Below the pieces are notes generated by a model. That model saw only the letters and a list, made by a program, of their open reading frames with translations. It did not search any database and was not told where the DNA came from. A program made the position numbers and the translations under genes. DNA of 61,705 bases from Paludibacter propionicigenes (GTDB taxonomy: Bacteria > Bacteroidota > Bacteroidia > Bacteroidales > JAIFNL01): contig DYNA01000004.1 in NCBI GenBank assembly GCA_020721325.1, forward strand, positions 1 through 61,705, read 5' to 3'. This document shows positions 15,026 through 36,036 of the stretch, piece by piece (the first letter of the stretch is position 1; every line of letters begins with the position of its first letter).

Positions 15026-16069
15026 TTAAATGATAAAGCCACCACCGATTAAATCGTTCTCTTCATAGAAAACGGCTGATTGACCGGAAGTTATGGCAAA
15101 TATTTTTGTTCCTGAAATTACTTTATATTGATTTTTTTTTATTTCTAATTTTCCTTTAAACAATTCGTTACTGTGCCTTACTTTAATTAAAACTTCAATA
15201 CTGCTGTTGATTTTTTCATATTTTTGAAAATGAATATTTTCTATAAAAAATTCATTTGTCATTAATTTTTCTTTTTCAGAAAGAATAATCTCATTTTTCT
15301 GGGTATCAAATTTATACACAAATAACGCTTTTTGATGTACAAAATCAAGTCCGCGTCTTTGACCGATGGTATAAAATGCCAAACCTTTGTGTTTTCCAAC
15401 TATTTTGCCGTTTTCCAGTACAAAATTTCCTTCCTTTATCGAAAATTCATTTTGTATAAAAGTTCGGTAATCGGTGTTGGGTAAAAAACACAAATTGTAA
15501 CTTTCTCGTTTGTGTGCTACGCGGCGAAGCCCTAATTCATTGGCTTTTTCGCGCAATTCCGATTTTGAAAACTCGGAAAGCGGAAACATGATTTTTGCTA
15601 AATTTTCTTGTGTCAAATTCCACATAAAATAAGTTTGGTCTTTGACTAAATCGGAACTTTTTTGTAAAAAATATCGCCCGTTTTCTTGTGCTATTTTTGC
15701 ATAATGACCGGTTGCAAGTAGCTCACAACCAAACTCTTGCATTATTTCTATTAATTTACCGAATTTAATTTCGCGGTTGCACACCACACACGGATTTGGC
15801 GTTTTTCCGGTTAAATAATTCGCTGTAAAGTCTTGAACTACTGTATTATAAAAAAGTTCTTCTACTGAAATGACGTAATGCGGAAAACCTAAATATTGTG
15901 CAACATTTCGGGCATCGTTTGCATCATCTTCAAAACTGTTGTAAACCAATATGTTAGGATATTTCCACGTTTTGAGCGTTACACCAATTATTTCATGCCC
16001 CTGCTGTTTTAAAATAGCGGCTGCCATAGAACTGTCTAAGCCACCGCTCATGGCAACCATTATTTTCAT
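15026..16069 (-). CDS. mnmA: tRNA-specific 2-thiouridylase
   Basis: PP-loop MVAMSGGLDSSMAA, NPCVVCN, ATGHYA and KDQTYF motifs. Confidence 0.92.
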   Translation of the reverse strand: MKIMVAMSGGLDSSMAAAILKQQGHEIIGVTLKTWKYPNILVYNSFEDDANDARNVAQYLGFPHYVISVEELFYNTVVQDFTANYLTGKTPNPCVVCNREIKFGKLIEIMQEFGCELLATGHYAKIAQENGRYFLQKSSDLVKDQTYFMWNLTQENLAKIMFPLSEFSKSELREKANELGLRRVAHKRESYNLCFLPNTDYRTFIQNEFSIKEGNFVLENGKIVGKHKGLAFYTIGQRRGLDFVHQKALFVYKFDTQKNEIILSEKEKLMTNEFFIENIHFQKYEKINSSIEVLIKVRHSNELFKGKLEIKKNQYKVISGTKIFAITSGQSAVFYEENDLIGGGFII

Positions 16070-16106
16070 AGCCGATTATTTATAAAATTTTTACTCATTT
16101 TTTACC

Positions 16107-19100
16107 TTAAAATTTATTTTCTATCCAGATTCGTGCATTTACAAAGGCTTCAAACCAAGGCGTTACTTCATGCGTTTTGGCTTGTTTCGTTTCTTCGTAA
16201 TTTGCCCATTGCCAAGGCATTATAGCTCGTTCTAAGTGGGGCATCATAGCCAAATGCCTGCCGTCGGGCGAGCAGATGGCTGCTGCATCAAAATCGGAGC
16301 CGTTCGGATTAGCTGGATAGTAACTGTGGCTGTATTTCATTGGAATACAGTAATTTTCTTCGCCATAAGGCAAATGAAACTTTCCTTCGCCATGCGCAAC
16401 CCAAATACCTAATTGTGTGTTAGACAACGATTTAAGCATAACTGATTCATTTTCCAAAACATTTACATTTAAAAATGCCGATTCAAATTTATGTGATTGA
16501 TTGTGAAGCATTTTAACTTTCTCTGTATGAGAAGGTTGTATTAAATCTAATTCAACCATCAATTGGCAACCATTGCAAACGCCTAAACTTAAAGTGTCGG
16601 GGCGTGCATAAAAATTGTCAAGTGCCTTTTTTGCCTTTTCGTTGTATAAAAACGCTCCTGCCCAACCTTTTGCTGAGCCGAGAACATCGGAATTTGAAAA
16701 ACCACCAACAAAAACCAGCATTTTAATGTCTTCAAGGGTTTCATTTCCAGAAATTAGGTCAGTGATATGCACATCTTTTACATCAAAACCGGCTTTAAAG
16801 AGCGAATAAGCCATTTCACGGTCGCCATTTACGCCTTTTTCCCGAATTATAGCAGCTTTTACTTTATTTTTTTCAGCGGAAGCGATATATTTTTCAATTT
16901 TTCCGTCAAAATGGTTCGGAAATTTGTAAATTAACGGATTTTTAGCATAATTTTTAAAACGTTCGAGTGCCAATTTTTCTCCCGATTGTTTGCAATCGAG
17001 AAGGTAGGAAGTTTCAAACCAAACATTTCTTAATTCATTGATATTCAGATTGAAAGAAATTGAATTTGTTTTTATTGTAAAATTTCTGTTTTCGTTTACA
17101 GTTGCTATTTTTGTAGCTAAAATTTCTTTTTTACTGAAAAAATCTAAAATTTCCTTTTCTTTTTCGTTTTCAATTTGAATTAAAATTGAAGGTTTTTCAC
17201 TGAATAAAATTGATACTAAATTGTTGGTTTTGAACTCATTAAGGTTTACATTCAAACCCATTTGGTTCGATGTGAAAGTCATTTCGAGAAGGGCTACGAT
17301 TAAACCGCCTGCCGAAACATCGTGTCCGGCTAAAATAAATTCCTTGTTTATTAATTCTTGAATGGCATTAAATACTTTTTTAAAATATTGATTATCAATT
17401 ACATCTGGAGTATTTTGTCCTAAAAATCCAAGTGTTTGAGCTAAACTACTTCCGCCTAATTCAAAAGTTTGTGAACCAGAAAAATCAATGTATAAAATAC
17501 TTGTTTTATTATTTTTTTTCAAAACGGGTGAAATGGCTTTTTTCACATCTAAAACTTCGGCAACAGCCGAAATAATGACTGTTCCGGGAGAATAAACGAC
17601 TTTGTCGTTGTATTTTTGAGTCATCGAAAGCGAATCTTTTCCGGTAGGAATTGAAATGCCTAAATCAATGGCAAACTTGCTAAGTGCTTGAACAGCAGAG
17701 TATAAGCGTGCATTTTCGCCTTCGTTTTTTGCAGGCCACATCCAGTTAGCACTCAAAGCCACCGATGAAATTCCATCTTTGAGCGGAGCCCAGATGATGT
17801 TTGTAAGTGCCTCAGCTACAGCTAATCGCGAGCCAGATTCGGCATTAATCAATGCAACTGCTGGAGCATGACCTATTGATGTTGCTATGCCGCTTGTGCC
17901 GGTATAATCGAGTGTTGAAATGCCTAAGTTGTTGAGTGGCAATTGAATTTCCCCTGTGGTTTGCTGCATGGCAACGCGTCCGGTAACCGACCTGTCCACT
18001 TTGTTTGTGAGCCAATCTTTTGCAGCAACTGATTCGAGTCGAAGGATATTTTCGAGGTATTTTTGCAAATCTTTTTCGTTGAAAACAGGTTCAGCGTAAG
18101 CTATTTTTTGCGTGGTATCGGTGAGAACGGTTTTGGGCGGATTTCCAAACAAATGGGCTAATTGCATATCAATTGGCGTATTTCCTTGTAAGTCCTTGAA
18201 AGTGAATTGCATATCGCCTGTCGCCTCGCCTATTACGTACATGGGAGCGCGCTCGCGAAGAGCAATTTTTTGCAGCCATTCAATGTCTTTTTCCTTGATA
18301 ACCAATCCCATACGTTCCTGCGATTCGTTTCCGATAATTTCTTTGGCAGAAAGCGTTGGGTCACCAATCGGAAGTCGGTCTATATGAATGACTCCGCCTG
18401 TGTTTTCAACCAATTCCGACAAACAATTCAAATGTCCGCCGGCACCATGGTCGTGCAATGAAATAATCGGATTTTGGTCGCTTTCGGCAAGAGCGCGAAT
18501 GGCGTTGAAAGTTCTTTTTTGCATTTCAGGGTTTGAACGTTGAACTGCATTTAGCTCAATATCAGAGTGATACTCGCCTGTTGCTACCGAAGAAACCGCA
18601 CCGCCTCCCATTCCTATTCTGTAATTGTCGCCTCCGAGTAAAACCAATTTATCATGTGTTTCGGGGTTAAGTTTTTGGGCATGTTCCAATCGAGCAAAGC
18701 CAATTCCTCCAGCTAACATAATGACTTTATCGTACCCAAAAATTTTATTCTTTTCGGTGTGTTCAAAAGTTAAAAGACTGCCGCAAATAAGGGGTTGTCC
18801 AAATTTATTTCCAAAATCACTTGCTCCATTGGAGGCTTTGATTAAAATTTCGGCAGGAGTTTGATAAAGCCAATTTCTTTCTTGGTTTTTTTCTTCCCAA
18901 AGTTTTCCGGTATTTAATCGTGGATAGGAAGTCATATAAACGGCAGTTCCAGCTAAAGGAATGCTGCCGATTCCGCCCGCCATTCGGTCGCGAATTTCGC
19001 CGCCGGAACCGGTTGCTGCACCGTTGAACGGTTCTACGGTAGTGGGGAAATTGTGGGTTTCGGCTTTGAGCGAAAGTATGGATTTAATTTCTTTTTCCTC

Positions 19101-19799
19101 AAAAAAATCGGCTTTGTCGTGCGATTTCGGTGCGAATTGAAGAATTTTTGGACCTTTTAAAAAAGCTACATTGTCTTTGTAAGCCGAAACGATGTTTTGC
19201 GGATTTGCTTTTGAGGTGGCTTTAATGAGGTCAAAAAGAGTGAGTTGCATTTCTTTTCCATCAATAAGAAAGCGTCCGTTGAAAATTTTGTGACGGCAAT
19301 GTTCGGAATTGACTTGCGAAAATCCGAAAACTTCGCTATCAGTTAATTTTCGCCCTAACTCGCGACTTATTGATTCTAAATATTCTACTTCGTCGGGGCT
19401 GAGTGCCAAGCCTTCTTGCTTGTTATATTGCTCAATATCATGTATATAGATGATTTTTTCTGGTTCAATTTCAATTTTAAAAATTTCTTGATTTAATTCT
19501 TTATATAATCTTTGAAGCATTGGGTCGATGTGGTGATTTTCATCAAAAATTTTTGTAAATTGTTCAATTCTAACAATTTGATAGATGCCCATGTTTTGAC
19601 AAATTTCAACGGCATTTGTGCTCCAAGGGGTTATCATTTCTTTGCGTGGACCTACGAAGTAGCCGTTAATATTTTCATTTTCAAGTGGTTTTGCATTTCC
19701 AAATGCCCAGATTAATTTTTCCACATCGTAAACATTTAGTTTTATAGTGGTTTGTACGGCAAAAAATGTTTGCTCTGTAGCTTCAAAGAATTTTATCAT
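16107..19799 (-). CDS. purL: Phosphoribosylformylglycinamidine synthase, single-chain large form
   Basis: About 1230 aa. It has duplicated AIR-synthase-like domains (SEHCRHKIF, DHGAGG) and a C-terminal glutamine amidotransferase (GVCNGCQ, HGEG). The start is preferred at ATG 19799 (MIKFFEA); the track ORF extends to 19835. Confidence 0.93.
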   Translation of the reverse strand: MIKFFEATEQTFFAVQTTIKLNVYDVEKLIWAFGNAKPLENENINGYFVGPRKEMITPWSTNAVEICQNMGIYQIVRIEQFTKIFDENHHIDPMLQRLYKELNQEIFKIEIEPEKIIYIHDIEQYNKQEGLALSPDEVEYLESISRELGRKLTDSEVFGFSQVNSEHCRHKIFNGRFLIDGKEMQLTLFDLIKATSKANPQNIVSAYKDNVAFLKGPKILQFAPKSHDKADFFEEKEIKSILSLKAETHNFPTTVEPFNGAATGSGGEIRDRMAGGIGSIPLAGTAVYMTSYPRLNTGKLWEEKNQERNWLYQTPAEILIKASNGASDFGNKFGQPLICGSLLTFEHTEKNKIFGYDKVIMLAGGIGFARLEHAQKLNPETHDKLVLLGGDNYRIGMGGGAVSSVATGEYHSDIELNAVQRSNPEMQKRTFNAIRALAESDQNPIISLHDHGAGGHLNCLSELVENTGGVIHIDRLPIGDPTLSAKEIIGNESQERMGLVIKEKDIEWLQKIALRERAPMYVIGEATGDMQFTFKDLQGNTPIDMQLAHLFGNPPKTVLTDTTQKIAYAEPVFNEKDLQKYLENILRLESVAAKDWLTNKVDRSVTGRVAMQQTTGEIQLPLNNLGISTLDYTGTSGIATSIGHAPAVALINAESGSRLAVAEALTNIIWAPLKDGISSVALSANWMWPAKNEGENARLYSAVQALSKFAIDLGISIPTGKDSLSMTQKYNDKVVYSPGTVIISAVAEVLDVKKAISPVLKKNNKTSILYIDFSGSQTFELGGSSLAQTLGFLGQNTPDVIDNQYFKKVFNAIQELINKEFILAGHDVSAGGLIVALLEMTFTSNQMGLNVNLNEFKTNNLVSILFSEKPSILIQIENEKEKEILDFFSKKEILATKIATVNENRNFTIKTNSISFNLNINELRNVWFETSYLLDCKQSGEKLALERFKNYAKNPLIYKFPNHFDGKIEKYIASAEKNKVKAAIIREKGVNGDREMAYSLFKAGFDVKDVHITDLISGNETLEDIKMLVFVGGFSNSDVLGSAKGWAGAFLYNEKAKKALDNFYARPDTLSLGVCNGCQLMVELDLIQPSHTEKVKMLHNQSHKFESAFLNVNVLENESVMLKSLSNTQLGIWVAHGEGKFHLPYGEENYCIPMKYSHSYYPANPNGSDFDAAAICSPDGRHLAMMPHLERAIMPWQWANYEETKQAKTHEVTPWFEAFVNARIWIENKF

Positions 19800-19835
19800 A
19801 AATTTATTTTTTATAGAAATGAACGTTTTTAACAA

Positions 19836-20789
19836 ATTAAATATTAATCGAATAAAATTATGGTCTTATTCATTGATTTTAAATACGATAGAGATAAAAT
19901 CAGAGTTTGTTTCTTTTGTCAAAAATACAAATAAAATAGTAGTACGTTTGAATATTTTTATTTTTTTAAGAAAAAAGAAATCAACAAGATTTGTTCAAAA
20001 AAATATTCGGCTTCATTTTCAATGATTTAAAAAAAATAGCAAAAAAATACTCATGTTGATAACTTTTTTTTTGACAATTAGAATTTGTTTATTTAAGCTA
20101 TTTTTACTTTTTTTTTGTTAAAAATCTCATTTTAAGTAATATAAAAAAATGATTTTTTCTTAATTGATTAGTTTAGAAAAGGTTAAAAATTTTCTGAAAT
20201 TGACTTGAGTAAAGATATTGATATATAGGTAATTATATAAATTTTACTTTTTTTATTTTTTGTTGAAAAGATTTTTTTTTGTTTTAAAAAATGCTTTAGT
20301 TAAAAAATAAATCTCTTTTTTTTGCTATTTATTTTGATAGCCGAAAAAAGCTTAAATTTCAAAATGTTTTGAAAAAAGTAAATTTCAAAATGAAAAGTTT
20401 AAATGGTTTTTGTATCTAAAATTTAGACTTTTAGAGTCCTTTTTCGATACATTATTTAACTTTTTTTTATATAATAATTGGGTATTTTTTTTTTGCTAAA
20501 TGCAACTTTCAATCTTAAATTAATTTTAAGCGAAAATAAATTATTTAAAAAAAAAATGATTTTGCTAAATGCTTAAATAACAAAAATTTAATGGTTAATA
20601 ATTTTGTTAATAAAAGCGGTAAATTACAATATTTCAATGATTTAAAGGTATATTTTTTGTAAATTAAACTAAATTATTGATAGTAATATGAATACAAAAA
20701 AAATATGTTTTTCTTTAAAAAAAATTTTTTTTTTAGGAATTTTAATTTAATATTTGTTACAAGAAAAATGCAAAAAAATTTATTTAACA
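19836..20789. other. Candidate chromosomal replication origin (oriC) region upstream of dnaA
   Basis: Non-coding AT-rich spacer of about 0.95 kb directly upstream of dnaA. One near-consensus DnaA box, tgttgataa, lies at about 20053 (consensus tgtggataa). Several internal direct repeats are present: tttcaatgatttaaa x2, aaatttcaaaatg x2 and ttttgctaaatgc x2. No perfect DnaA boxes were seen. Confidence 0.4.
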
Positions 20790-27114: not shown

Positions 27115-27603
27115 TTAACTTTTAAGATTTTGTGAAATAATTTGACACAAAAAAGTTAAATATTTTTCATCTATTTCATCAAAATCATTTAATTTATTGC
27201 TATCGACATCGAAAATGTACTTAACTTGCTGATTTACAAATATTGGCAAAACAATTTCCGATTTTGAATCAGAGCTGCAAGCTATATGTCCGGGAAATTC
27301 TTCAACATTCGGTACAATAATGGGGGCTTGGTTTTTCCAAGCCGTTCCACAGACGCCTTTTCCGTAAGCAATTCGTGTACAAGCAATTGGACCATGAAAA
27401 GGTGCTAACACCAATTGGTTTTCTTTCACTTCGTAAAAACCCACCCAAAAAAAATTCATGCCAAAATACAAAGCCGATGCAATGTTGGCTAAATTGGCAA
27501 TTACATCTTTTTCACCTTCAATAAGTGCCTCAATTTGAGGAAGTAAGGCTATGTACTTTTCTTCTTTTGATGCAGAAGCATCTATAAATAAATTTTCAGC
27601 CAT
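27115..27603 (-). CDS. msrC: GAF-domain protein, free methionine-(R)-sulfoxide reductase-like
   Basis: 162 aa. The WVGFYEV...LVLAPFHGPIACTRIAYGKGVCGTAW...GHIACSSDSKSEIVLPI pattern matches the YebR/fRMsr family. Confidence 0.7.
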   Translation of the reverse strand: MAENLFIDASASKEEKYIALLPQIEALIEGEKDVIANLANIASALYFGMNFFWVGFYEVKENQLVLAPFHGPIACTRIAYGKGVCGTAWKNQAPIIVPNVEEFPGHIACSSDSKSEIVLPIFVNQQVKYIFDVDSNKLNDFDEIDEKYLTFLCQIISQNLKS

Positions 27604-27608
27604 TTTTT

Positions 27609-28190
27609 TTATTTTGCTTGTGAAAAAAGCTCTTTGACAAGATATAAATTTCTTTCTATCAAGTGAATAGTTCCAAAAGATGGTCCCGAATAAAAGCGAA
27701 ATGTGATGGTGTCGCTATTTAAAATTTCATGGATTTGTTGCTTGTTGAGTTCGATTAAAAACTGCTCTTCTTTCCATGTTTCTGACGATATTCCCGTAAC
27801 TACATTTATGGTTGTACTATCGTTAATTTGCATGTTTTCAGTGTTTTCCACTGTTTTATGCCGTAATTTTATATCGCGTTTTTCAATGTATTTTTCATAT
27901 ATTTTATTATCCAAAATCATATAAAAAGTATCTAACAAAGCAAAACTTCCCGAAGAACGATGAATGGTCGTATAAATTTTATACGTTTCTTTTTGCTGCT
28001 TTTTTTCCAGTGCAAATGTAAACCGACCACTTAAAATATCAGTTATTTTTTCATCAGTACTTTCGTATATTTTAACATAAGCATTCTGGGTTTTTCGGTA
28101 TTCATCGTTTTGATATACAATAGTTTCCTTATATCCGCATGAATTTAGAAAAAATAAAATAATTAAAAGTAAAATACCTGTTTTTTTCAT
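27609..28190 (-). CDS. Lipoprotein, function unknown
   Basis: Signal peptide with lipobox FFLNSCG. No other motif recognised. Confidence 0.5.
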   Translation of the reverse strand: MKKTGILLLIILFFLNSCGYKETIVYQNDEYRKTQNAYVKIYESTDEKITDILSGRFTFALEKKQQKETYKIYTTIHRSSGSFALLDTFYMILDNKIYEKYIEKRDIKLRHKTVENTENMQINDSTTINVVTGISSETWKEEQFLIELNKQQIHEILNSDTITFRFYSGPSFGTIHLIERNLYLVKELFSQAK

Positions 28191-28196
28191 AAAAAA

Positions 28197-28700
28197 TTAT
28201 TCTTTAAAAATAGCATAATAAATTAAATCGATAATTTTTCCATTTTTAACAGCCGCTTTTTTCAAAACGGCTTCTTTAATGAAATTATTTTTTTCCAAAA
28301 CTTTGGTAGAAGCAATGTTAAAATCATATACTTTAGCATAAATTTTTATTACTTTTTCAAAAGTATCGAATGTATAGCTGATTATTTTACTAACTACCTC
28401 ACTCATAATGCCTTGTCCCCAATATTGCTCGCTTAACCAATAGCCCAATTCGGCTGTTATTTCGTAAATTCCTGTTTGTGGGTGAATAGAAATAACTCCA
28501 ACTGCCTCATTATTAACTACAATAGCAAATACTTTCAGCGGTTCTTCCGTTTGCTTGAGGGCGATAAAATCTACAGCATTTTGCAACAGATACGGATACG
28601 GAAATACATCGGTCAAATTATTTGCAATTTTCTGGTTATTAGCATGTTTGGCTAAAGAACCGGCATCGCTTTGTCGTAAACTTCTTAATTCAAATTTCAT
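28197..28700 (-). CDS. GNAT family N-acetyltransferase (RimJ/RimL-like)
   Basis: 167 aa. The ELGYWLSEQYWGQGIMSEVV acetyl-CoA binding block is typical of GNAT Acetyltransf_3-like proteins. Confidence 0.75.
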   Translation of the reverse strand: MKFELRSLRQSDAGSLAKHANNQKIANNLTDVFPYPYLLQNAVDFIALKQTEEPLKVFAIVVNNEAVGVISIHPQTGIYEITAELGYWLSEQYWGQGIMSEVVSKIISYTFDTFEKVIKIYAKVYDFNIASTKVLEKNNFIKEAVLKKAAVKNGKIIDLIYYAIFKE

Positions 28701-28720: not shown

Positions 28721-31700
28721 TTATTTTAATTCGGGAATAATAAATTTTTCTAAAAAACACATCCCTTCTAAAATTAACATAGAATGCTTATAATCAAATG
28801 GTTGTCCGGTTTTTGCTTGTTCGTTGGCTTTTTGCCATTCCGAATCATTTAGTATAAACGCTTTCAATTCGCGTGCAAGTTGAGCTTTTTTAGCTTCCAA
28901 TTGGGCGGCATCATTTTTTATTCCAGTAGAATTAGGACCAACAAAGCGTATAAAAATATCAAAAAATTTATTAAATTCTATAAATTTGTCCGGTATTCTA
29001 ATACCGAATTTCATATCTTTGAGATGCTCTATTTTTATTATATCGGAAGCTTTAAGTAATTGTTCTTCTCCATTTTGGGGTTGAAATACAAATCCGTTTT
29101 CGCCAAAAAGGTCTGAATTTTCGCGTACATCTGCCGATACGGTAACTTCTTGCGGAGCAGAAAGTCCTTTGGAAACTTCCGATTTATTGTCGCTACGAAT
29201 GCTATCTTTCTTTTCTAAATTGATGTGCTGGCTTCCTTCGCCAAATCCGGCTTTAAAGCATTGATTGTAATAGTTTCGGGCTTCGGTTTTTCCCGGAAAA
29301 ACATCAAGCCAATCAAAAATTCTTCCGCCTTTTCCGAAAGGTAAAAAATCGACCATTCTTACGTTTTGATATTCGTTTTCTTTCATGGCTTTTGCAATCA
29401 ACTGTCCGGAGTAAAACAAAAGTAAACCGGTAATATAAGCCGGTATCACAAACACTTCGGGCGTAAATTGCGCCAAAGAACTGTAAAAAGCTCTAAATTG
29501 CTCATCTTTTAACCGGTCGAGTATGGCATTCAGATAAAAAGGTGAAGTATTGGCTTTTTCTGTAATATCCTTAATATTAGCCACTTTAATGGGACATGCC
29601 GGACTTTCATGATACTTATAAATGGCATGTCTTACGGCATTTGAATCCTTGATTACTTCCGATAAAATTCCGGCAGCCATGCGAAGCGAACTTTGCTTAC
29701 TCAATTTATAAGCACGCGCTTTGCTATCCATTCCGAGAACCAAAATGTCTGAGGTTGAGCCACCTACGTCAATACCGAGCAAGATATTTTTTTCGTCCAA
29801 GCCAATGTTCGTTAAAGCGTAATTGCAAACCGCTTCGGCTTCGGTGCTGGGCTGGTAACTCACTTTAATTGAGTGCTTTTCGATGGGTACGTGCGAAAGT
29901 TCGTCGTACATAAGCTGATATTGTCTTACATCGAATTTTGTGAATGAACCCGGATATGACCAACGCAACTCATTGGCTAACACTTTATTAGCATACAAAT
30001 CGGCAACTGCCATAATCCAAACCGTTTTCAAATATGCTTTCTTTTTTTCTTTCCCTCTGGCATCGTTGAGCCATTTCATGCTGTGATGCAAAATTCCGGC
30101 ATTGGTCGTAATTGTGCGGTTGTCCATGCCGTGAATGACCAAATTATGCTCAAAAATAGGTACTCCACCTGCTATTTCTTCTTGTTCCATGCCGGTTGCA
30201 ACATATTGTGGCTTGTGGTCGTGAACCCACGATTTAATTTGCCCGTTGGCGGTATCTTCGTTTTGAAAAAATAAAAGTTCGTTGCGAACGGCTGTTTTTT
30301 CGCGAAAATGGTCTATAATTTCAGCACCAAGCAAAAAGATTCTTCTATTTTTGAACGGAATGGGTTCTACTTCGGAACGATTTGTACGTGAATAACTTAG
30401 ACAGGAATTGTTGCTTCCAAAATCTATTCCTATAACAGCCGTTTCAAAGTTCGTTTCATGCGATAAATCATAGATTTGTTGCCCGCCCATTGACTCGTCA
30501 TTTGGCTCTTTTACAATTAGATAGCCACAAATTCGGTCTTTTCCGCCTATCATAGCCCGAAGCTCTAAACCGGCAACCGGACGATTTGAACGAATAACTT
30601 CATACGGATGGTCTTCGCGCGTAGCCGTTGATACCGGATATTTTATCAAATGCTCAATTTTTAAATCGGGGTGATAGCCTTCGTAACCGCCATAAATTAA
30701 ATTTTCTTTATGGTCGAAAATGTAATTTCCTCCATCGTAACCATTTGATTGTGAGATATTTTTGTAAAAAGGGACAAATTTTATATCGCGTGAGTTTGAA
30801 GGATATTCGTTGTAAAAATAATATTGATTCCAATTGCGCGAAATAAAATTTGGCCACATAATTATGTTGCGTTGCACTCCGGTAAGCAGTTTAATTTCGT
30901 ATTCGCGCACTATGGGCGTTTGTTTTTTGCCATCGACTATCAAAAATAATTCCACAATGAGCTTAAAATCATTTACTTTGATGCTTGCGCGAAGTTCGTG
31001 TGAGTGTTCGAGCGAAGAATTGACCAACTCCCCTACTCTATTCTTAAACAAGCGTAAACCGTAGTTACTCAAGGGAATAGGAAAATACCACTTTTTATTT
31101 GCATTTTGGGGGTCGGTGCAAGTCATGTAATGAACGGCACTTGTTTCAAGTCGTTGTTCTTCACTTACTTGCGAAAGCGAAAAGATAAAATCGTCGTGCA
31201 TCAAAATTTTTTGCAAATCAACTTTTTGTCCGCCATTCGTTTCGTCAAAACTAAAATTTCCTTCGTTTAAAAACAAATCTTGCTTAATTCGGAAAAGTTG
31301 CGTAAATGGTTGCATAAATTCCAATTCTGCATCTAAAGCACCTTCGGTAACTAATTGAAAACCACGTGCTTTTATTTCAGAACTCCATTTTTGCACAAAC
31401 TCGAAAAGTGGAGTAAGTTTTAAATTCTCTTTGCCTTCTCTGTTTTGATTGATTTCTTTTTCAAATTCTGGTATTCTGTTTGCCAAATTATTTACCAGCA
31501 AATACAGTTTTTGCAATTGATTGTTATCAAAATTTCCAAATTCGAGCGGATTGTCAAAACGCCCGTTTCTAAACCACGGCACATCACCTTTTGCCGTAAA
31601 GGCACTGTAATCTATTCCGGTGAAAATCAAGGAGTAAGGTGAAGTTGCACCGATTAAAAGATTGTTGTAATAAATCAGTTGAATTTGGGGTTTGCTTTGC

Positions 31701-32155
31701 TTTTGTTCTTTCAAAACTTTTGGGTCGCACCACAAATCGGTATCTTCAAAGAGCATTCGCCCGAAAGCATTGGGAATATTATATAAACTGTCGAGTAAAC
31801 CCGGCGTAAATTCTATCGGTTTGCTTAAAACGATTCTGTCTGGGAAAAGTGCCAACAAAGCAATTAAGCCTTTCCACTCATTTACAATACTTTCATAAAA
31901 TTTTATTAAGCCCGAAGTATCAATATTGGCATCTTTTTGGGTGTATTTGAAGGCATAGCCAAAAACTTTTGCACGCGACCAGATGCTGGGCAAGCCCGAA
32001 ATCATATTGCTTAACACCTCAGCATCAACGTTTTCCACTAAATCGCCGGTGTTTATACCTTGAATATAAGGTGTAGCTTGCTCAAATAAATGCCAAGAAC
32101 CTTGAACGGCTTCTTTTTCGCCTACTGAACTGTTGATTAATAACGCTTTTGCCAT
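28721..32155 (-). CDS. Giant (1144 aa) protein: unrecognised N-terminal half plus a C-terminal Hsp70/actin-fold (ASKHA) ATPase-like domain
   Basis: Phosphate-1-like VIGIDFGSNNSCLSY (res 574-588; GIDFGSNNS at 30404-30430). Phosphate-2-like LLGIDVGGSTSDILVLG (res 792-808, about 29732-29782). Adenosine-like VDFLPFGKGGRIF (FLPFGKGGRIF at 29315-29347). Compare DnaK IGIDLGTTNSCVAV, DLGGGTFD and LVGGxTRxP, which have similar spacing. No TM helix or signal peptide. Confidence 0.6.
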   Translation of the reverse strand: MAKALLINSSVGEKEAVQGSWHLFEQATPYIQGINTGDLVENVDAEVLSNMISGLPSIWSRAKVFGYAFKYTQKDANIDTSGLIKFYESIVNEWKGLIALLALFPDRIVLSKPIEFTPGLLDSLYNIPNAFGRMLFEDTDLWCDPKVLKEQKQSKPQIQLIYYNNLLIGATSPYSLIFTGIDYSAFTAKGDVPWFRNGRFDNPLEFGNFDNNQLQKLYLLVNNLANRIPEFEKEINQNREGKENLKLTPLFEFVQKWSSEIKARGFQLVTEGALDAELEFMQPFTQLFRIKQDLFLNEGNFSFDETNGGQKVDLQKILMHDDFIFSLSQVSEEQRLETSAVHYMTCTDPQNANKKWYFPIPLSNYGLRLFKNRVGELVNSSLEHSHELRASIKVNDFKLIVELFLIVDGKKQTPIVREYEIKLLTGVQRNIIMWPNFISRNWNQYYFYNEYPSNSRDIKFVPFYKNISQSNGYDGGNYIFDHKENLIYGGYEGYHPDLKIEHLIKYPVSTATREDHPYEVIRSNRPVAGLELRAMIGGKDRICGYLIVKEPNDESMGGQQIYDLSHETNFETAVIGIDFGSNNSCLSYSRTNRSEVEPIPFKNRRIFLLGAEIIDHFREKTAVRNELLFFQNEDTANGQIKSWVHDHKPQYVATGMEQEEIAGGVPIFEHNLVIHGMDNRTITTNAGILHHSMKWLNDARGKEKKKAYLKTVWIMAVADLYANKVLANELRWSYPGSFTKFDVRQYQLMYDELSHVPIEKHSIKVSYQPSTEAEAVCNYALTNIGLDEKNILLGIDVGGSTSDILVLGMDSKARAYKLSKQSSLRMAAGILSEVIKDSNAVRHAIYKYHESPACPIKVANIKDITEKANTSPFYLNAILDRLKDEQFRAFYSSLAQFTPEVFVIPAYITGLLLFYSGQLIAKAMKENEYQNVRMVDFLPFGKGGRIFDWLDVFPGKTEARNYYNQCFKAGFGEGSQHINLEKKDSIRSDNKSEVSKGLSAPQEVTVSADVRENSDLFGENGFVFQPQNGEEQLLKASDIIKIEHLKDMKFGIRIPDKFIEFNKFFDIFIRFVGPNSTGIKNDAAQLEAKKAQLARELKAFILNDSEWQKANEQAKTGQPFDYKHSMLILEGMCFLEKFIIPELK

Positions 32156-32275: not shown

Positions 32276-33865
32276 TTAATTTTCAAATCCGTAAAGCTTT
32301 ACCAAAGTTTTATACATTCGTTTAATTAATTTTTCCGATTTATTATTGATGCCTTCTTCGTCTGAAAGCTTAATAAATTCTGACTTAAATTCATCGTAAG
32401 CATTGCTGAAAATACCGGTTTTATATTCATGTTTTTCGTCATTTGGGCGATAAATCTGCTTGTTGTAAGCAAATTTATTAAGTTCTCTTTCATTGCCAAT
32501 GCTAAATAATTCAGCATTAAAAAGAAAATTATCTTGTCCGTTTGCAGACCTGTAAACTTGTCTTAACCAGCCATCTATAAGTTCTTTTTCTTTGTCTAAC
32601 GCAAAGTGAAACATGGCAAAATATTTTTTCAAGGCATTTACTTCTTCCATTAAAATGTCGTCGTAGCCGATAATTTTATTTTTTTCGAGGGTTTTGGCTT
32701 GTGCTGCTGCAAAAAAGTCCGTCTTTTCTGGGTAAACCAAAAAGGAAAGGGCTATTAACATTCCAAATTTTTTCATAAATTCTCCGACCAAATGCGAATG
32801 GACAAAGTCTTTAAAATCCAATTTTCCGTTTTCGTTCAATGCACGGAAGTAATATTGTACTTCGCGTTTATCTTCTTTAATTTCAGATAGTTCTGCTTTT
32901 TTTGTATGGAAAAAATCGTAAGCTGCAAAAGCCGTTAGCAATTCAATGTAATGAGCATCATTTTTTTGTTTTACGCCTCCGGTAACGGTTTCTTTGCCTT
33001 CTTGCTTGGTTTGAAAGTCGTTAGAAGGCGTGCCGAGCATGTAAAATTTTTGATATGTACTTTTTACGGTTTGGTCTTCGTTGTAAAACATCATGGCAAC
33101 TTGCGAATTGAGTGCAAAATTTTTAGAATTTGCAACTACCAGTTGATTAGCACGTTGCGTCTCATCGGGCGGTGGAAATTTAAAATAACTCGAAAGCAAA
33201 GTCGCTCCAAAAAAAGCTTTTGAAAGCGATTTTCCGGGTACAATGATGTTCATTGCGGCATTGAATGCCTTGGGAATGATAGGAATAGAAGATGCGCCGG
33301 TGCCTCCAAAAACCGAACCCAACACAAAAACACGCGCCGTTTGCTGTTCGCCGGCATCGAAAATGGACTGGATAAATTGCGATAAACTGCCTTTGGGATT
33401 GTCTTTAACTTCTTGTAAAATAGAGTGATACATTAGCAATGACCCCAAATGTGTTTGTGAACGATAGCCATGTTTCAAATCAAATTCGCGCACATTGTCG
33501 GTCAAAAGTAAGCGTGCCAAATCTTTTTCTTCTTTTGAAGCATAGGAATACGCCGAAAGGCTTGTAAATTTGCCGTTTTTACCAATGTTTGAGTAATCGG
33601 GGCAAAATTCAAAAAAATTGATTTTGGCACTGAAAAATGTATTTTCGAGTGCGTAATGTGTTTTGTTGTAGCCTTTTACCTTTAAATAAGTATCTTTTAC
33701 CAATTCTTTAAGGCGATTAAAATTTCCGTTTTCAAGGTCGGTATCCAATGCCAATATGTTGATTTCTGTTTTATCGTACATGCCCATGGCGCAGGTATGC
33801 ACAAATGCCTCCAACGCACGCATTCCCGTGCCTCCAATGCCTATTACAAATAGTTTATCGTTCAT
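32276..33865 (-). CDS. FtsZ/tubulin-like GTPase-domain protein (divergent, 529 aa)
   Basis: FVIGIGGTGMRALEAF (GIGGTGMR at 33818-33841) compares with FtsZ VIGVGGGGGNAV. INILALDTD (res 35-43) compares with FtsZ NTD. VFVLGSVFGGTGASSIPIIP (GGTGAS res 187-192, 33290-33307) compares with the tubulin signature [SAG]GGTG[SA]G and FtsZ GMGGGTGTGAAPV. The C-terminal half is helical with no recognisable motif. Confidence 0.55.
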   Translation of the reverse strand: MNDKLFVIGIGGTGMRALEAFVHTCAMGMYDKTEINILALDTDLENGNFNRLKELVKDTYLKVKGYNKTHYALENTFFSAKINFFEFCPDYSNIGKNGKFTSLSAYSYASKEEKDLARLLLTDNVREFDLKHGYRSQTHLGSLLMYHSILQEVKDNPKGSLSQFIQSIFDAGEQQTARVFVLGSVFGGTGASSIPIIPKAFNAAMNIIVPGKSLSKAFFGATLLSSYFKFPPPDETQRANQLVVANSKNFALNSQVAMMFYNEDQTVKSTYQKFYMLGTPSNDFQTKQEGKETVTGGVKQKNDAHYIELLTAFAAYDFFHTKKAELSEIKEDKREVQYYFRALNENGKLDFKDFVHSHLVGEFMKKFGMLIALSFLVYPEKTDFFAAAQAKTLEKNKIIGYDDILMEEVNALKKYFAMFHFALDKEKELIDGWLRQVYRSANGQDNFLFNAELFSIGNERELNKFAYNKQIYRPNDEKHEYKTGIFSNAYDEFKSEFIKLSDEEGINNKSEKLIKRMYKTLVKLYGFEN

Positions 33866-35407: not shown

Positions 35408-35690
35408 AATATAAAGTGAAAGAAATGTATTTTGAAGTTGTTTTTATTCATTCATTTTTTTTTTAAGTCTTAGCTTGGTCAGTTTATTTTGCTTTGTTTT
35501 CTATTTTTTTGTGCAAAATAAACAAATCAGCCTTAAAGTTAATAATTTGTCAATTTTTTAATTTTTTAAAATTTAATGAACAAATATAACAAGCTTTTTT
35601 TTATTAGATATTTGTTTTTCAATAATTTATCAAAAATATTTGACAAATTATCGAAACAACAATAATTACAAAAATACAAAAACTTTGTTT

Positions 35691-35882
35691 AAAAAAGTTT
35701 TTTTCAAAAAAAGTTTTCAAAAAAAGTTTTCAAAAAAAGTTTTCCAAAAAAAGTTTTCCAAAAAAAGTTTTCCAAAAAAAGTTTTCCAAAAAAGTTTTCA
35801 AAAAAAAGTTTTCCAAAGAAGTTTTTCCAAAAAAGTTTTCCAAAAAAGTTTTTCAAAAAAAGTTTTCCAAAAAAAGTTTTGA
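35691..35882. repeat. Tandem minisatellite, about 14 copies of a 12-15-bp unit (consensus AAAAAAAGTTTTCC)
   Basis: Read directly from the sequence: aaaaaaagttttc / aaaaaaagttttcc units recur head-to-tail with 1-2-nt length variants and one internal A>G variant (aaagaagtttttcc). It is intergenic, lying between the stop of the 812-aa gene (36037) and the htrA start (35407). Confidence 0.9.
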
Positions 35883-36036
35883 ATTTTTTTTTAATAAAGT
35901 GAGTGTATGATAAAAAAATATTTTTGACGCAAATATGTAAAGATAAAACGGAAGTACGAAAAAAGAAAGTCAGTAAAATGCAAAATTGCAAGCGTGATTT
36001 CTTTTTTTTGATTTTTTAATGCCGAATTTTTAAATA

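Follow-up and report, generated by a model that had tools for sequence, protein, structure and literature searches.

A short tubulin-like protein of Bacteroidota encoded beside a predicted Hsp70-like ATPase

The minus strand of a 61,705-nucleotide stretch of DNA from Paludibacter propionicigenes (GenBank assembly GCA_020721325.1, contig DYNA01000004.1), analyzed at its full length and called the window below, carries a complete open reading frame (ORF) for a tubulin-like protein of 529 amino acids (aa) and, downstream of it, a gene for a much larger partner protein whose predicted fold is that of an Hsp70-type ATPase (Table 1). An original prediction, made from the sequence alone, had described the smaller protein as a divergent member of the tubulin/FtsZ superfamily with a large insertion between the T1 and T4 loops, no clear T7 loop, and a helical C-terminal segment unlike that of FtsZ or tubulin. 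The motif positions that it gave are exact (GIGGTG at residues 9 to 14, DTD at 41 to 43, GGTGAS at 187 to 192, and YNEDQ at 261 to 265). Relatives of the tubulin-like gene occur in at least 540 species, nearly all of them Bacteroidota, and the two-gene pair is the constant core of the module to which it belongs.

Homologues of the 529-aa protein, which are about 510 to 585 aa long, are numerous: one search returned more than 1,600 at E ≤ 1e-3, and among the 120 matches listed they are full-length or nearly so, 50 to 91% identical, and aligned from M1 to the C terminus. When 1.84 billion cluster representatives were searched with a profile, 1,883 matched, 345 of them below 1e-30. Motif conservation is reported below for a set of 121 representatives with pairwise identities of at most 50%, alongside a closer alignment of 27 homologues. 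On the window protein itself, the Pfam family Tubulin_2 (PF13809) scores 23.8 bits at residues 158 to 195 and the family Tubulin (PF00091) scores 17 bits (E 0.007) at residues 5 to 45, the gathering scores being 27 and 33 bits, respectively. Tubulin_2 matches 24 of the 27 homologues at E ≤ 0.01 (best E 1.3e-8); relatives score 21 to 41 bits against it, that is, on either side of the gathering score, and along the profile, which has 356 positions, their matches run collinearly over positions 2 to 330. PF00091 matches 22 of the 27 at E ≤ 0.01 (best 3.5e-6), every match inspected remaining under its cut-off. Many homologues carry a precomputed PF13809 match, and some members are already labelled “tubulin-like domain-containing protein” at NCBI; NCBIfam held nothing useful for the tubulin-like protein.

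Structure prediction points in the same direction. The alignment-based AlphaFold2 (AF2) model of the 529-aa protein (pLDDT [predicted local distance difference test] 80.8; predicted template modeling score [pTM] 0.86) consists of six strand-helix units, with strands at residues 4 to 10, 34 to 40, 81 to 87, 177 to 184, 217 to 225, and 271 to 278, followed by a helix at 306 to 319. Foldseek ranks tubulins first among PDB structures (E 4e-3 to 3e-2, probability 0.9 to 0.97) and phage tubulins/PhuZ first in BFVD (best E 1.2e-3, probability 1.0); glycosyltransferases also appear among the Foldseek matches, with a probability of only 0.35 to 0.47. A local hhalign comparison with FtsZ was marginal (E ~0.02) and placed T1 to T5 in the right order: T1 fell on GVGGGG, ALDTD on AVNTD, G133 to G141 on GAGANPEVG, T4 on GMGGGTGTGA, and SYFKF on KPFNFEG. 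Since the Pfam matches on homologues, the structural matches, and the ordered T1 to T5 loops agree, residues 1 to 321 are best modeled as a very divergent tubulin-type GTPase domain, and the superfamily membership proposed from the sequence is upheld by these lines of evidence together with the conservation of T1 to T5. This domain is homologous to that of a cyanobacterial relative over residues 3 to 321 (E 1.7e-32, 30% identity), and distant representatives match the family profile at positions 5 to 325.

Conservation within the domain is concentrated in the nucleotide-binding loops. Both the G-box of T1 and the GGTGAS of T4 are near-fixed across the 121 representatives, which is far from a chance pattern; the outcome that the original prediction named as refuting it, a lack of conservation at these positions, is thus not borne out. 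In T1, G11, G12, and G14 are conserved at 98 to 99% and T13 at 86%; the T2-like motif holds D41 (95%), D43 (100%), N46 (94%), G47 (96%), and N48 (90%). L130, G133, and G141 of the T3-like loop are conserved at 95 to 100% and R135 at 92%, the model having pLDDT values below 50 for residues 133 to 137. S184, G187, G190, and A191 of T4 are invariant, F186, G188, and T189 reach 97 to 99%, and its F-G-G-T-G-A-S fits six of the seven positions of the tubulin signature of PROSITE, [SAG]-G-G-T-G-[SA]-G, with serine in place of the last glycine. The T5-like segment features Y227 (100%), F228 (99%), and F230 (94%). The most conserved motif outside T4, GGxxQxNxxHxxE, comes after strand S6 and a loop: Q300 and N302 are found in 121 of 121 representatives, G296 in 118, E308 in 116, and H305 in 111. 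It is probably the base-recognition region, in the role of T6/H7; its two hhalign placements, both of low confidence, conflict with each other, one on “PND” at S6 of FtsZ and the other on T7 of beta-tubulin. The H7-like helix that follows, with F318 conserved at 97%, is the last element common with the cyanobacterial homologue.

The distance from T1 to T4 is 178 residues in the window protein versus 130 in beta-tubulin and 86 in the FtsZ of E. coli, in agreement with the long distance relative to FtsZ noted in the original prediction. That prediction had explained it by an insertion of about 80 aa after the DTD strand; the extra length is real (about 90 residues), but it is spread over at least three pieces, which in the AF2 model and the FtsZ alignment correspond to residues 64 to 80 (the H2-S3 loop), 88 to 132, and 160 to 174. 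The second and main piece, modeled with low confidence, runs into the T3-like loop; it contains short helices only, lacks an FtsZ counterpart in hhalign, and harbors insertions and deletions within the family, whereas the third is an extra helix after H3 (residues 138 to 155), where FtsZ has one H3. Among 114 family representatives the spacing has a median of 178 and a range of 166 to 202. The Tubulin_2 profile itself has T4 near position 175 to 180, and the whole T1-to-T4 region is kept in the cyanobacterial relative at 30% identity, so that the long spacing is an old, family-wide trait.

Past the conserved domain, the canonical elements of tubulins are missing or unrecognizable. No NxDxx[DE] motif occurs anywhere in the 529-aa protein, and no conserved acidic residue stands directly after the H7-like helix, in line with the reported lack of a clear T7 loop. 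After the helix come a linker of three residues, a variable helix (residues 323 to 333) without a conserved acidic residue, and a strand (337 to 342); the order of elements past residue 306 in the model is thus that of H7-T7-H8-S7 minus the catalytic loop. YNEDQ, the T7-like candidate put forward originally, had to be discarded: it lies in predicted helices (residues 247 to 263 and 265 to 270) that form H5, and because these sit between S5 and S6, before any possible H7, it cannot be T7. Its Y261 is conserved in 120 of 121 representatives and its D264 in 62. A non-canonical T7-like candidate is NGKLDFKDFV, located after the strand at 337 to 342. Its D353 is the one acidic residue conserved in this neighborhood; all 27 sequences of the closer alignment have it, as do 93 of the 121 representatives, in the context [ILFV]-x-[WF]-x-D-[LF] (position 351 being W or F), and one hhalign run placed the segment, with low confidence, on GLMNVDFADV, the T7 of FtsZ. 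The helical C-terminal segment, too, is as described: the AF2 secondary structure is mostly helical, Pfam finds neither FtsZ_C nor Tubulin_C on the window protein or its 27 aligned homologues, and past residue 321 there is no homology with the cyanobacterial relative, which makes this C-terminal domain clade-specific. The AF2 secondary structure of the 529-aa protein contains no long coiled-coil segment.

The partner protein matched nothing in Pfam, NCBIfam, or PADLOC, and 30 of its homologues had no match to Pfam HSP70 and no other meaningful Pfam match, three isolated ones (best E 0.019) being at chance level. Its likeness to Hsp70 emerges from the AF2 model (pLDDT 83.5), for which all 50 matches listed by Foldseek in the PDB belong to the Hsp70 family (DnaK, Hsp72, Hsc70, BiP, and relatives), mostly to nucleotide-binding domains (NBDs), with a best E value of 1.6e-9 and a target-normalized TM-score of about 0.5. 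Across the 30 homologues, G576, D578, F579, G580, S581, and N583 are invariant in the phosphate-1 motif, the exact location of weak matches to actin and Hsp70 chains in a PDB profile search, and G794, D796, G798, G799, and T801 are invariant in the phosphate-2 motif. The invariant motifs GIDFGSNNS, GIDVGGSTSD, and GKGGR are of the type found in actin/Hsp70-fold ATPases. Alignment with the NBD of DnaK reached E 3.1e-4 in hhalign at the phosphate-2 block, and in our reading of this alignment E772, D796, and T801 would pair with E171, D194, and T199 of DnaK. The model and these motifs indicate an Hsp70-NBD-like ATPase that has kept its catalytic motifs. It resembles the DnaK NBD in fold, in both phosphate motifs, and in the conserved equivalents of the catalytic glutamate and aspartate, and differs from Hsp70 in that about 560 largely beta-rich residues precede the predicted NBD and a helical region follows it in place of the substrate-binding domain. 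No DnaJ or GrpE genes were seen near the pair. Residues 1 to 80 (window positions 31916 to 32155) include the invariant W21, P56, W59, and R61, yet the model gives this stretch a pLDDT of less than 50; it might acquire its fold upon binding, with the tubulin-like protein as one conceivable target.

One genome per species was scanned, and 80 related loci were fetched. Carriers of a relative include Prevotella, Segatella copri, Xylanibacter, Porphyromonas, Tannerella, Muribaculaceae, Cytophagales, and Sphingobacteriales, with a few Ignavibacteriota/Chlorobiaceae, and some of them are cultured (Segatella copri, Prevotella jejuni, Xylanibacter rarus, and Porphyromonas uenonis). Among the matches listed, the window copy is closest, with 91% identity, to those of two metagenome-assembled genomes (MAGs) labelled “Bacteroidetes bacterium” and “Draconibacterium orientale.” Of the 80 loci, 74 have the partner downstream of the tubulin-like gene by tblastn. 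A long partner match is present in 61 loci, and there the gap between the two genes has a median of 21 bp and is at most 150 bp in 56; in the remaining 5 it is 158 to 6,924 bp, mostly with other genes in between. Over the same 61 loci, the identity of one protein to its window copy and that of the other are correlated (r = 0.99). Similarity to the window copies follows taxonomy (54 to 55% in Cytophagales, about 51% in Tannerella, and 45 to 48% in Prevotella); because it falls off in this way and the operon order is stable, the Bacteroidota clade looks vertically inherited.

The pairing extends to more distant relatives. A Gloeothece plasmid carries a 511-aa tubulin-like gene followed by an 1118-aa gene homologous to the partner (hhalign E 1.6e-22). 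Prevotella sp. oral taxon 299 has, on its second replicon (1.77 Mb; NC_022111.1, ~621700 to 628800; locus L082), an unannotated, divergent tubulin-like gene (24% identity to the window protein) in an array of ORFs of 513, 147, 537 (tubulin-like), and 1158 aa, the last being similar in size to the partner. This divergent copy suggests that the module has deep paralogous lineages in the genus Prevotella. A metagenomic contig from Logan (SRR33619817; locus L083) encodes a 535-aa tubulin-like protein followed by an 1159-aa protein, again similar in size to the partner, with HTH_17 and PriCT_1/AAA_25 genes upstream and a 655-aa FGE-sulfatase-domain gene downstream. We read HTH_17 and PriCT_1/AAA_25 as typical of an integrative element, so that this copy looks to be in a mobile-island context unlike that of the window.

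A few loci depart from the general picture. In five loci from Cytophagales and Sphingobacteriales (L018, L019, L022, L023, and L026), one to several unrelated genes, spanning 0.6 to 7 kb, separate the pair. Three MAGs labelled Treponemataceae, Eubacteriales, and Oscillospiraceae (L027, L074, and L078) encode Bacteroidales-type proteins with 45 to 50% identity to the window protein, and they are probably cases of binning contamination and not true occurrences outside the Bacteroidota-Chlorobi group.

Table 1. Positions, in window coordinates, of the gene pair, of the domains and motifs of its two proteins, and of the genes downstream. Residue numbers refer to the protein that contains the feature.
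Feature	Residues	Window position	Strand	Basis or remark
Tubulin-like (Tubulin_2/FtsZl1-type) ORF	1-529	32276..33865	minus	Complete, 529 aa, ATG start
Predicted tubulin-like GTPase domain	1-321	32903..33865	minus	AF2; S1-S6 units plus terminal H7-like helix
T1 loop/G-box, GIGGTG	9-14	33824..33841	minus	Conservation, hhalign, Pfam Tubulin (5-45)
T2-like motif, LDTDLENGN	40-48	33722..33748	minus	Conservation, hhalign
Main family-specific insertion after S3	88-132	33470..33604	minus	AF2, pLDDT 50-67
T3-like loop, DLKHGYRSQTHLGS (family form DLKHGYRxQTHLGS)	129-142	33440..33481	minus	Conservation, hhalign
Extra helix before S4	160-174	33344..33388	minus	AF2
T4 signature, GSVFGGTGASS	183-193	33287..33319	minus	Conservation, hhalign, Pfam Tubulin_2 (158-195)
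T5-like segment, SYFKFPPPD	226-234	33164..33190	minus	Conservation, hhalign
YNEDQ	261-265	33071..33085	minus	T7 candidate of the original prediction, rejected
Signature TGGxxQxNxxHxxE	295-308	32942..32983	minus	Conservation; start of H7-like helix
H7-like helix	306-319	32909..32950	minus	AF2; closes conserved domain
Clade-specific C-terminal domain	322-529	32279..32902	minus	AF2; ten helices, three short strands
Non-canonical T7-like candidate, NGKLDFKDFV	346-355	32801..32830	minus	Carries D353
Partner gene, 1144 aa	1-1144	28721..32155	minus	120 bp downstream of tubulin-like ORF; predicted Hsp70-NBD-like ATPase
Partner phosphate-1 motif, VIGIDFGSNNS	575-585	30401..30433	minus	Homologue conservation
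Partner phosphate-2 motif, LGIDVGGSTSDIL	793-805	29741..29779	minus	Homologue conservation
GNAT acetyltransferase gene		28197-28700	minus	20-bp gap after partner gene
193-aa putative lipoprotein gene		27609-28190	minus	6-bp gap after GNAT gene
162-aa ORF, GAF-like by eye		27115-27603	minus	5-bp gap after lipoprotein gene

Most related loci have the pair within a longer conserved array, in the order lipoprotein, 129-aa protein, tubulin-like protein, Hsp70-like protein, ~800-aa protein, 193-aa protein, and CW_7 protein, the last named for a repeat at its C terminus. The upstream lipoprotein (~454 aa) is present in 53 and the 129-aa protein, membrane-spanning by eye, in 48 of 65 assessable loci; the ~800-aa protein, for which a weak TPR match is the sole Pfam signal and no relation to the partner was found, follows in 42 of 57. 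Besides the TPR and CW_7 signals, no Pfam model matches the accessory families. Because a lipoprotein and a small membrane protein flank the pair in most relatives, the array suggests a machine located at the cell envelope. The lipoprotein features DxSxC and ITDGE motifs and looks vWA-like by eye (hhalign E 0.017 over 14 columns, unconfirmed), as the 193-aa protein looks TerD-like; neither resemblance found support in Pfam, the PDB profile search, or hhalign. Instances of the array outside the clade of the window include loci L012 (8047 to 9965), L028 (15079 to 19622), L055, L059, L071, and most others. In four loci from Ignavibacteriota and some Bacteroidota (L016 at 15152 to 20444, L020, L024, and L030), a PP2C phosphatase gene comes after the partner; L016 additionally has a Ser/Thr kinase gene (Pfam-confirmed) farther downstream, whose cluster relatives occur in L020 and L030 and not in L024.

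The surroundings of the pair in the window consist of housekeeping-type genes (HtrA protease, GNAT, and DapA-like), a classification made partly by eye. An HtrA-type protease gene precedes the pair, and the GNAT, lipoprotein, and 162-aa reading frames that follow it at short distances may be cotranscribed with it. A GNAT gene is also found downstream in the two closest relatives (L001 and L002) and not in the other loci. Between the HtrA-like gene and an 812-aa gene, an intergenic tandem repeat (window 35700 to 35880) comprises about 13 copies of the 14-nucleotide unit TTTTCCAAAAAAAG with a 90% match and creates spurious lysine/phenylalanine-rich ORFs on both strands (35640 to 35991). No Rfam family was found in the window, and a sigma-70 promoter scan relied on a model that is uninformative for Bacteroidota.

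The features flagged in the original prediction, namely, the spacing, the missing T7, and the helical C terminus, are known for the family as a whole and are not peculiar to this gene, since they were published in 2010 as hallmarks of FtsZl1/Tubulin_2: Makarova and Koonin (PMC2875224) reported T1-T4 inserts, a T6-H7 region that could not be identified, and an unrelated C terminus. The window protein shares the T1-T4 inserts, the position of T4 near 175 to 180 of the profile, the lack of an identifiable T6-H7/T7, and the unrelated C terminus. It differs in size and architecture, as FtsZl1 proteins have about 1000 aa with an extended coiled coil and an alpha-helical C-terminal domain, compared with 529 aa and no coiled coil here; the 2010 lists contain no Prevotella or Porphyromonas protein, and the FtsZl1 of Bacteroides caccae has 913 aa (PMC2875224). 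FtsZl1 operons feature a vWA protein and often a protein kinase, a novel GTPase, or OmpA, in contrast to the giant Hsp70-like ATPase found here. No vWA protein, kinase, novel GTPase, or OmpA gene was found in the window, and the module holds no clearly recognizable vWA, GTPase, or OmpA member, although the PP2C phosphatase and Ser/Thr kinase of a few related loci recall the kinase association of FtsZl1 operons.

Taken as a whole, the observations are best explained by a short-form (~530-aa) member of the Tubulin_2/FtsZ-like-1 family that works in a two-gene module with an Hsp70-NBD-like ATPase and in a non-canonical mode, an account that we consider reasonably probable. Given the conservation of the T1-to-T6 elements, the tubulin-like protein would bind GTP through them. 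As the canonical longitudinal interface of T7 and C-terminal domain is absent, it would assemble through a non-canonical interface or else form a complex with the Hsp70-like ATPase in which it serves as a switch or oligomer dependent on GTP. The trigger for GTP turnover might be the partner or a residue that is not part of the canonical T7, such as D353; D353 and R135 would be the best candidates for activation in cis. The Hsp70-like ATPase, for its part, may remodel, nucleate, or disassemble the tubulin-like assembly. The strict gene linkage suggests that the ATPase binds the tubulin-like protein and either regulates how it assembles or provides the activation that it lacks. The original prediction had likewise proposed that GTP hydrolysis might be impaired, or provided in trans by the neighboring protein, which is at least a conserved partner.

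Several observations weigh against this account. The window protein stays below both Pfam gathering scores (23.8 versus 27 bits for Tubulin_2 and 17 versus 33 for Tubulin), its Foldseek E values are weak (above 1e-3) with TM-scores of 0.2 to 0.3, and neither the single protein nor the family profile retrieved any tubulin or FtsZ in PDB sequence searches, even at E ≤ 10. Loop assignments past T5 follow from secondary-structure order and from low-confidence, mutually conflicting hhalign alignments. As for the pairing, the proposed physical interaction is drawn from gene linkage, no tubulin/partner fusion protein is among the matches listed, and the tubulin-like gene lacks an adjacent partner in five loci (L004, L005, L006, L008, and L021). 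These five come from rumen and cave Bacteroidales MAGs and one Cytophagales MAG, with no partner in the downstream sequence at hand. Furthermore, tblastn and hidden Markov model searches found no homologue of the accessory genes anywhere in the 61.7-kb window, which holds the core pair only, and the literature searched contains no biochemical or genetic data on the tubulin-like family.

It is tempting to speculate beyond this account that the pair is an obligate two-protein nucleoside triphosphatase (NTPase) machine with an origin independent of FtsZ-FtsA, in which the partner or a residue of the D353 type replaces activation by T7 and the C-terminal domain, and which would constitute an unrecognized cytoskeleton-like or stress/defense apparatus of Bacteroidota and cyanobacterial plasmids; in this strong form, we regard the proposal as doubtful.

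Alternatively, the tubulin-like protein might be a filament-forming cytoskeletal protein that, in the manner of FtsZ with FtsA, polymerizes with GTP at the membrane for remodeling or vesicle formation, a possibility that we find unlikely but the strongest of the competing ones. Membership in the tubulin superfamily and intact GTP-binding loops fit this idea, as do the membrane-linked neighbors in most relatives and the ftsA-ftsZ gene pair, in which a tubulin-type gene likewise has a neighbor of the actin/Hsp70 fold. The two systems are alike in that a tubulin-superfamily GTPase, whose T1 to T5 are alignable to those of FtsZ, adjoins an ATPase of the actin/Hsp70 fold. They differ in the spacing of 178 versus 86 residues, in the absence here of both the T7 NxDxxD and FtsZ_C, and in the partner, which has 1144 aa and is nearest to the NBDs of Hsp70 chaperones, not to FtsA, MreB, or ParM. 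The elements that make longitudinal contacts (T7 and a C-terminal domain with H8 and S7 to S10) are missing or unrecognizable, the membrane-linked genes are absent from the window, and no dcw-type genes were recognized, on reading, among the neighboring ORFs. In TubZ and PhuZ, both T7 and the C-terminal domain are retained, and the proteins act together with partners of the TubR/tubC type; nothing of this was seen here, and a phage collection contained no homologue of the tubulin-like protein; the likeness to them consists in a divergent prokaryotic tubulin fold, the phage tubulins among the BFVD matches, and the plasmid location of distant relatives. For FtsZl1, a role in membrane remodeling or vesicle formation was proposed by Makarova and Koonin (PMC2875224), and this published hypothesis also speaks for a filament at the membrane.

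Another explanation, which we judge improbable, is that the pair forms the core of a conflict or anti-phage system in which NTP-dependent assemblies set the threshold for an abortive or containment response. Kaur, Burroughs, Iyer, and Aravind (2020; PMC7159879) reported tubulin and HSP70 components in GTPase-centered DO-GTPase/GAP1-N2 conflict systems, and the present pair is similar to these in bringing tubulin- and HSP70-superfamily proteins into the same class of multigene NTPase systems. Those systems are defined by DO-GTPase and GAP1, come from Firmicutes and Actinobacteria, and hold tubulin and HSP70 in separate neighborhood themes (PMC7159879), whereas no DO-GTPase, GAP1, or variable effector domains were recognized in the loci examined here; among the neighbor families we found no P-loop GTPase and nothing GAP1-like, as judged without a dedicated GAP1/DO-GTPase profile. 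In favor of a conflict role, distant relatives of the module reside on cyanobacterial plasmids, the Logan copy lies beside HTH_17 and PriCT_1/AAA_25 genes with the FGE-sulfatase-domain gene after it, and some related loci include the PP2C phosphatase and Ser/Thr kinase. PADLOC-DB 2.0 had no match at E ≤ 1 for the tubulin-like protein, the partner, or two downstream genes, however, the phage collection had no homologue, the Bacteroidota clade looks vertical, and the neighbors in the window are of the housekeeping type. Finally, that the tubulin likeness is superficial and the protein some other Rossmann-like nucleotide or sugar-nucleotide enzyme, as its sub-threshold Pfam scores, weak Foldseek E values, and occasional glycosyltransferase matches might suggest, is highly improbable, considering that tubulins lead in two structure libraries (0.9 to 1.0 versus 0.35 to 0.47 for glycosyltransferases), that two Pfam tubulin-family models match most homologues exactly at T1 and T4, and that T1 to T5 align with FtsZ in the right order.

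Returning to the account of a short Tubulin_2/FtsZ-like-1 protein working with an Hsp70-like ATPase, we found in the literature searched no paper on the short tubulin-like subfamily or on its pairing with an Hsp70-like ATPase, no experimental follow-up of FtsZl1/Tubulin_2 since its description in 2010, and no account of GTP hydrolysis or assembly by tubulin-fold proteins without T7 and C-terminal domain. The tubulin-fold/Hsp70-fold module, which is also present in gut and oral Prevotella, is thus undescribed in that literature. As the short form has one constant, Hsp70-fold partner and a wide distribution that includes cultured species, it offers a compact experimental system for these questions of hydrolysis and assembly. 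If the two proteins do work together, they would represent a second partnership between a tubulin-fold and an actin/Hsp70-fold protein in bacterial cell biology, and a large protein family without a Pfam model would gain a function.

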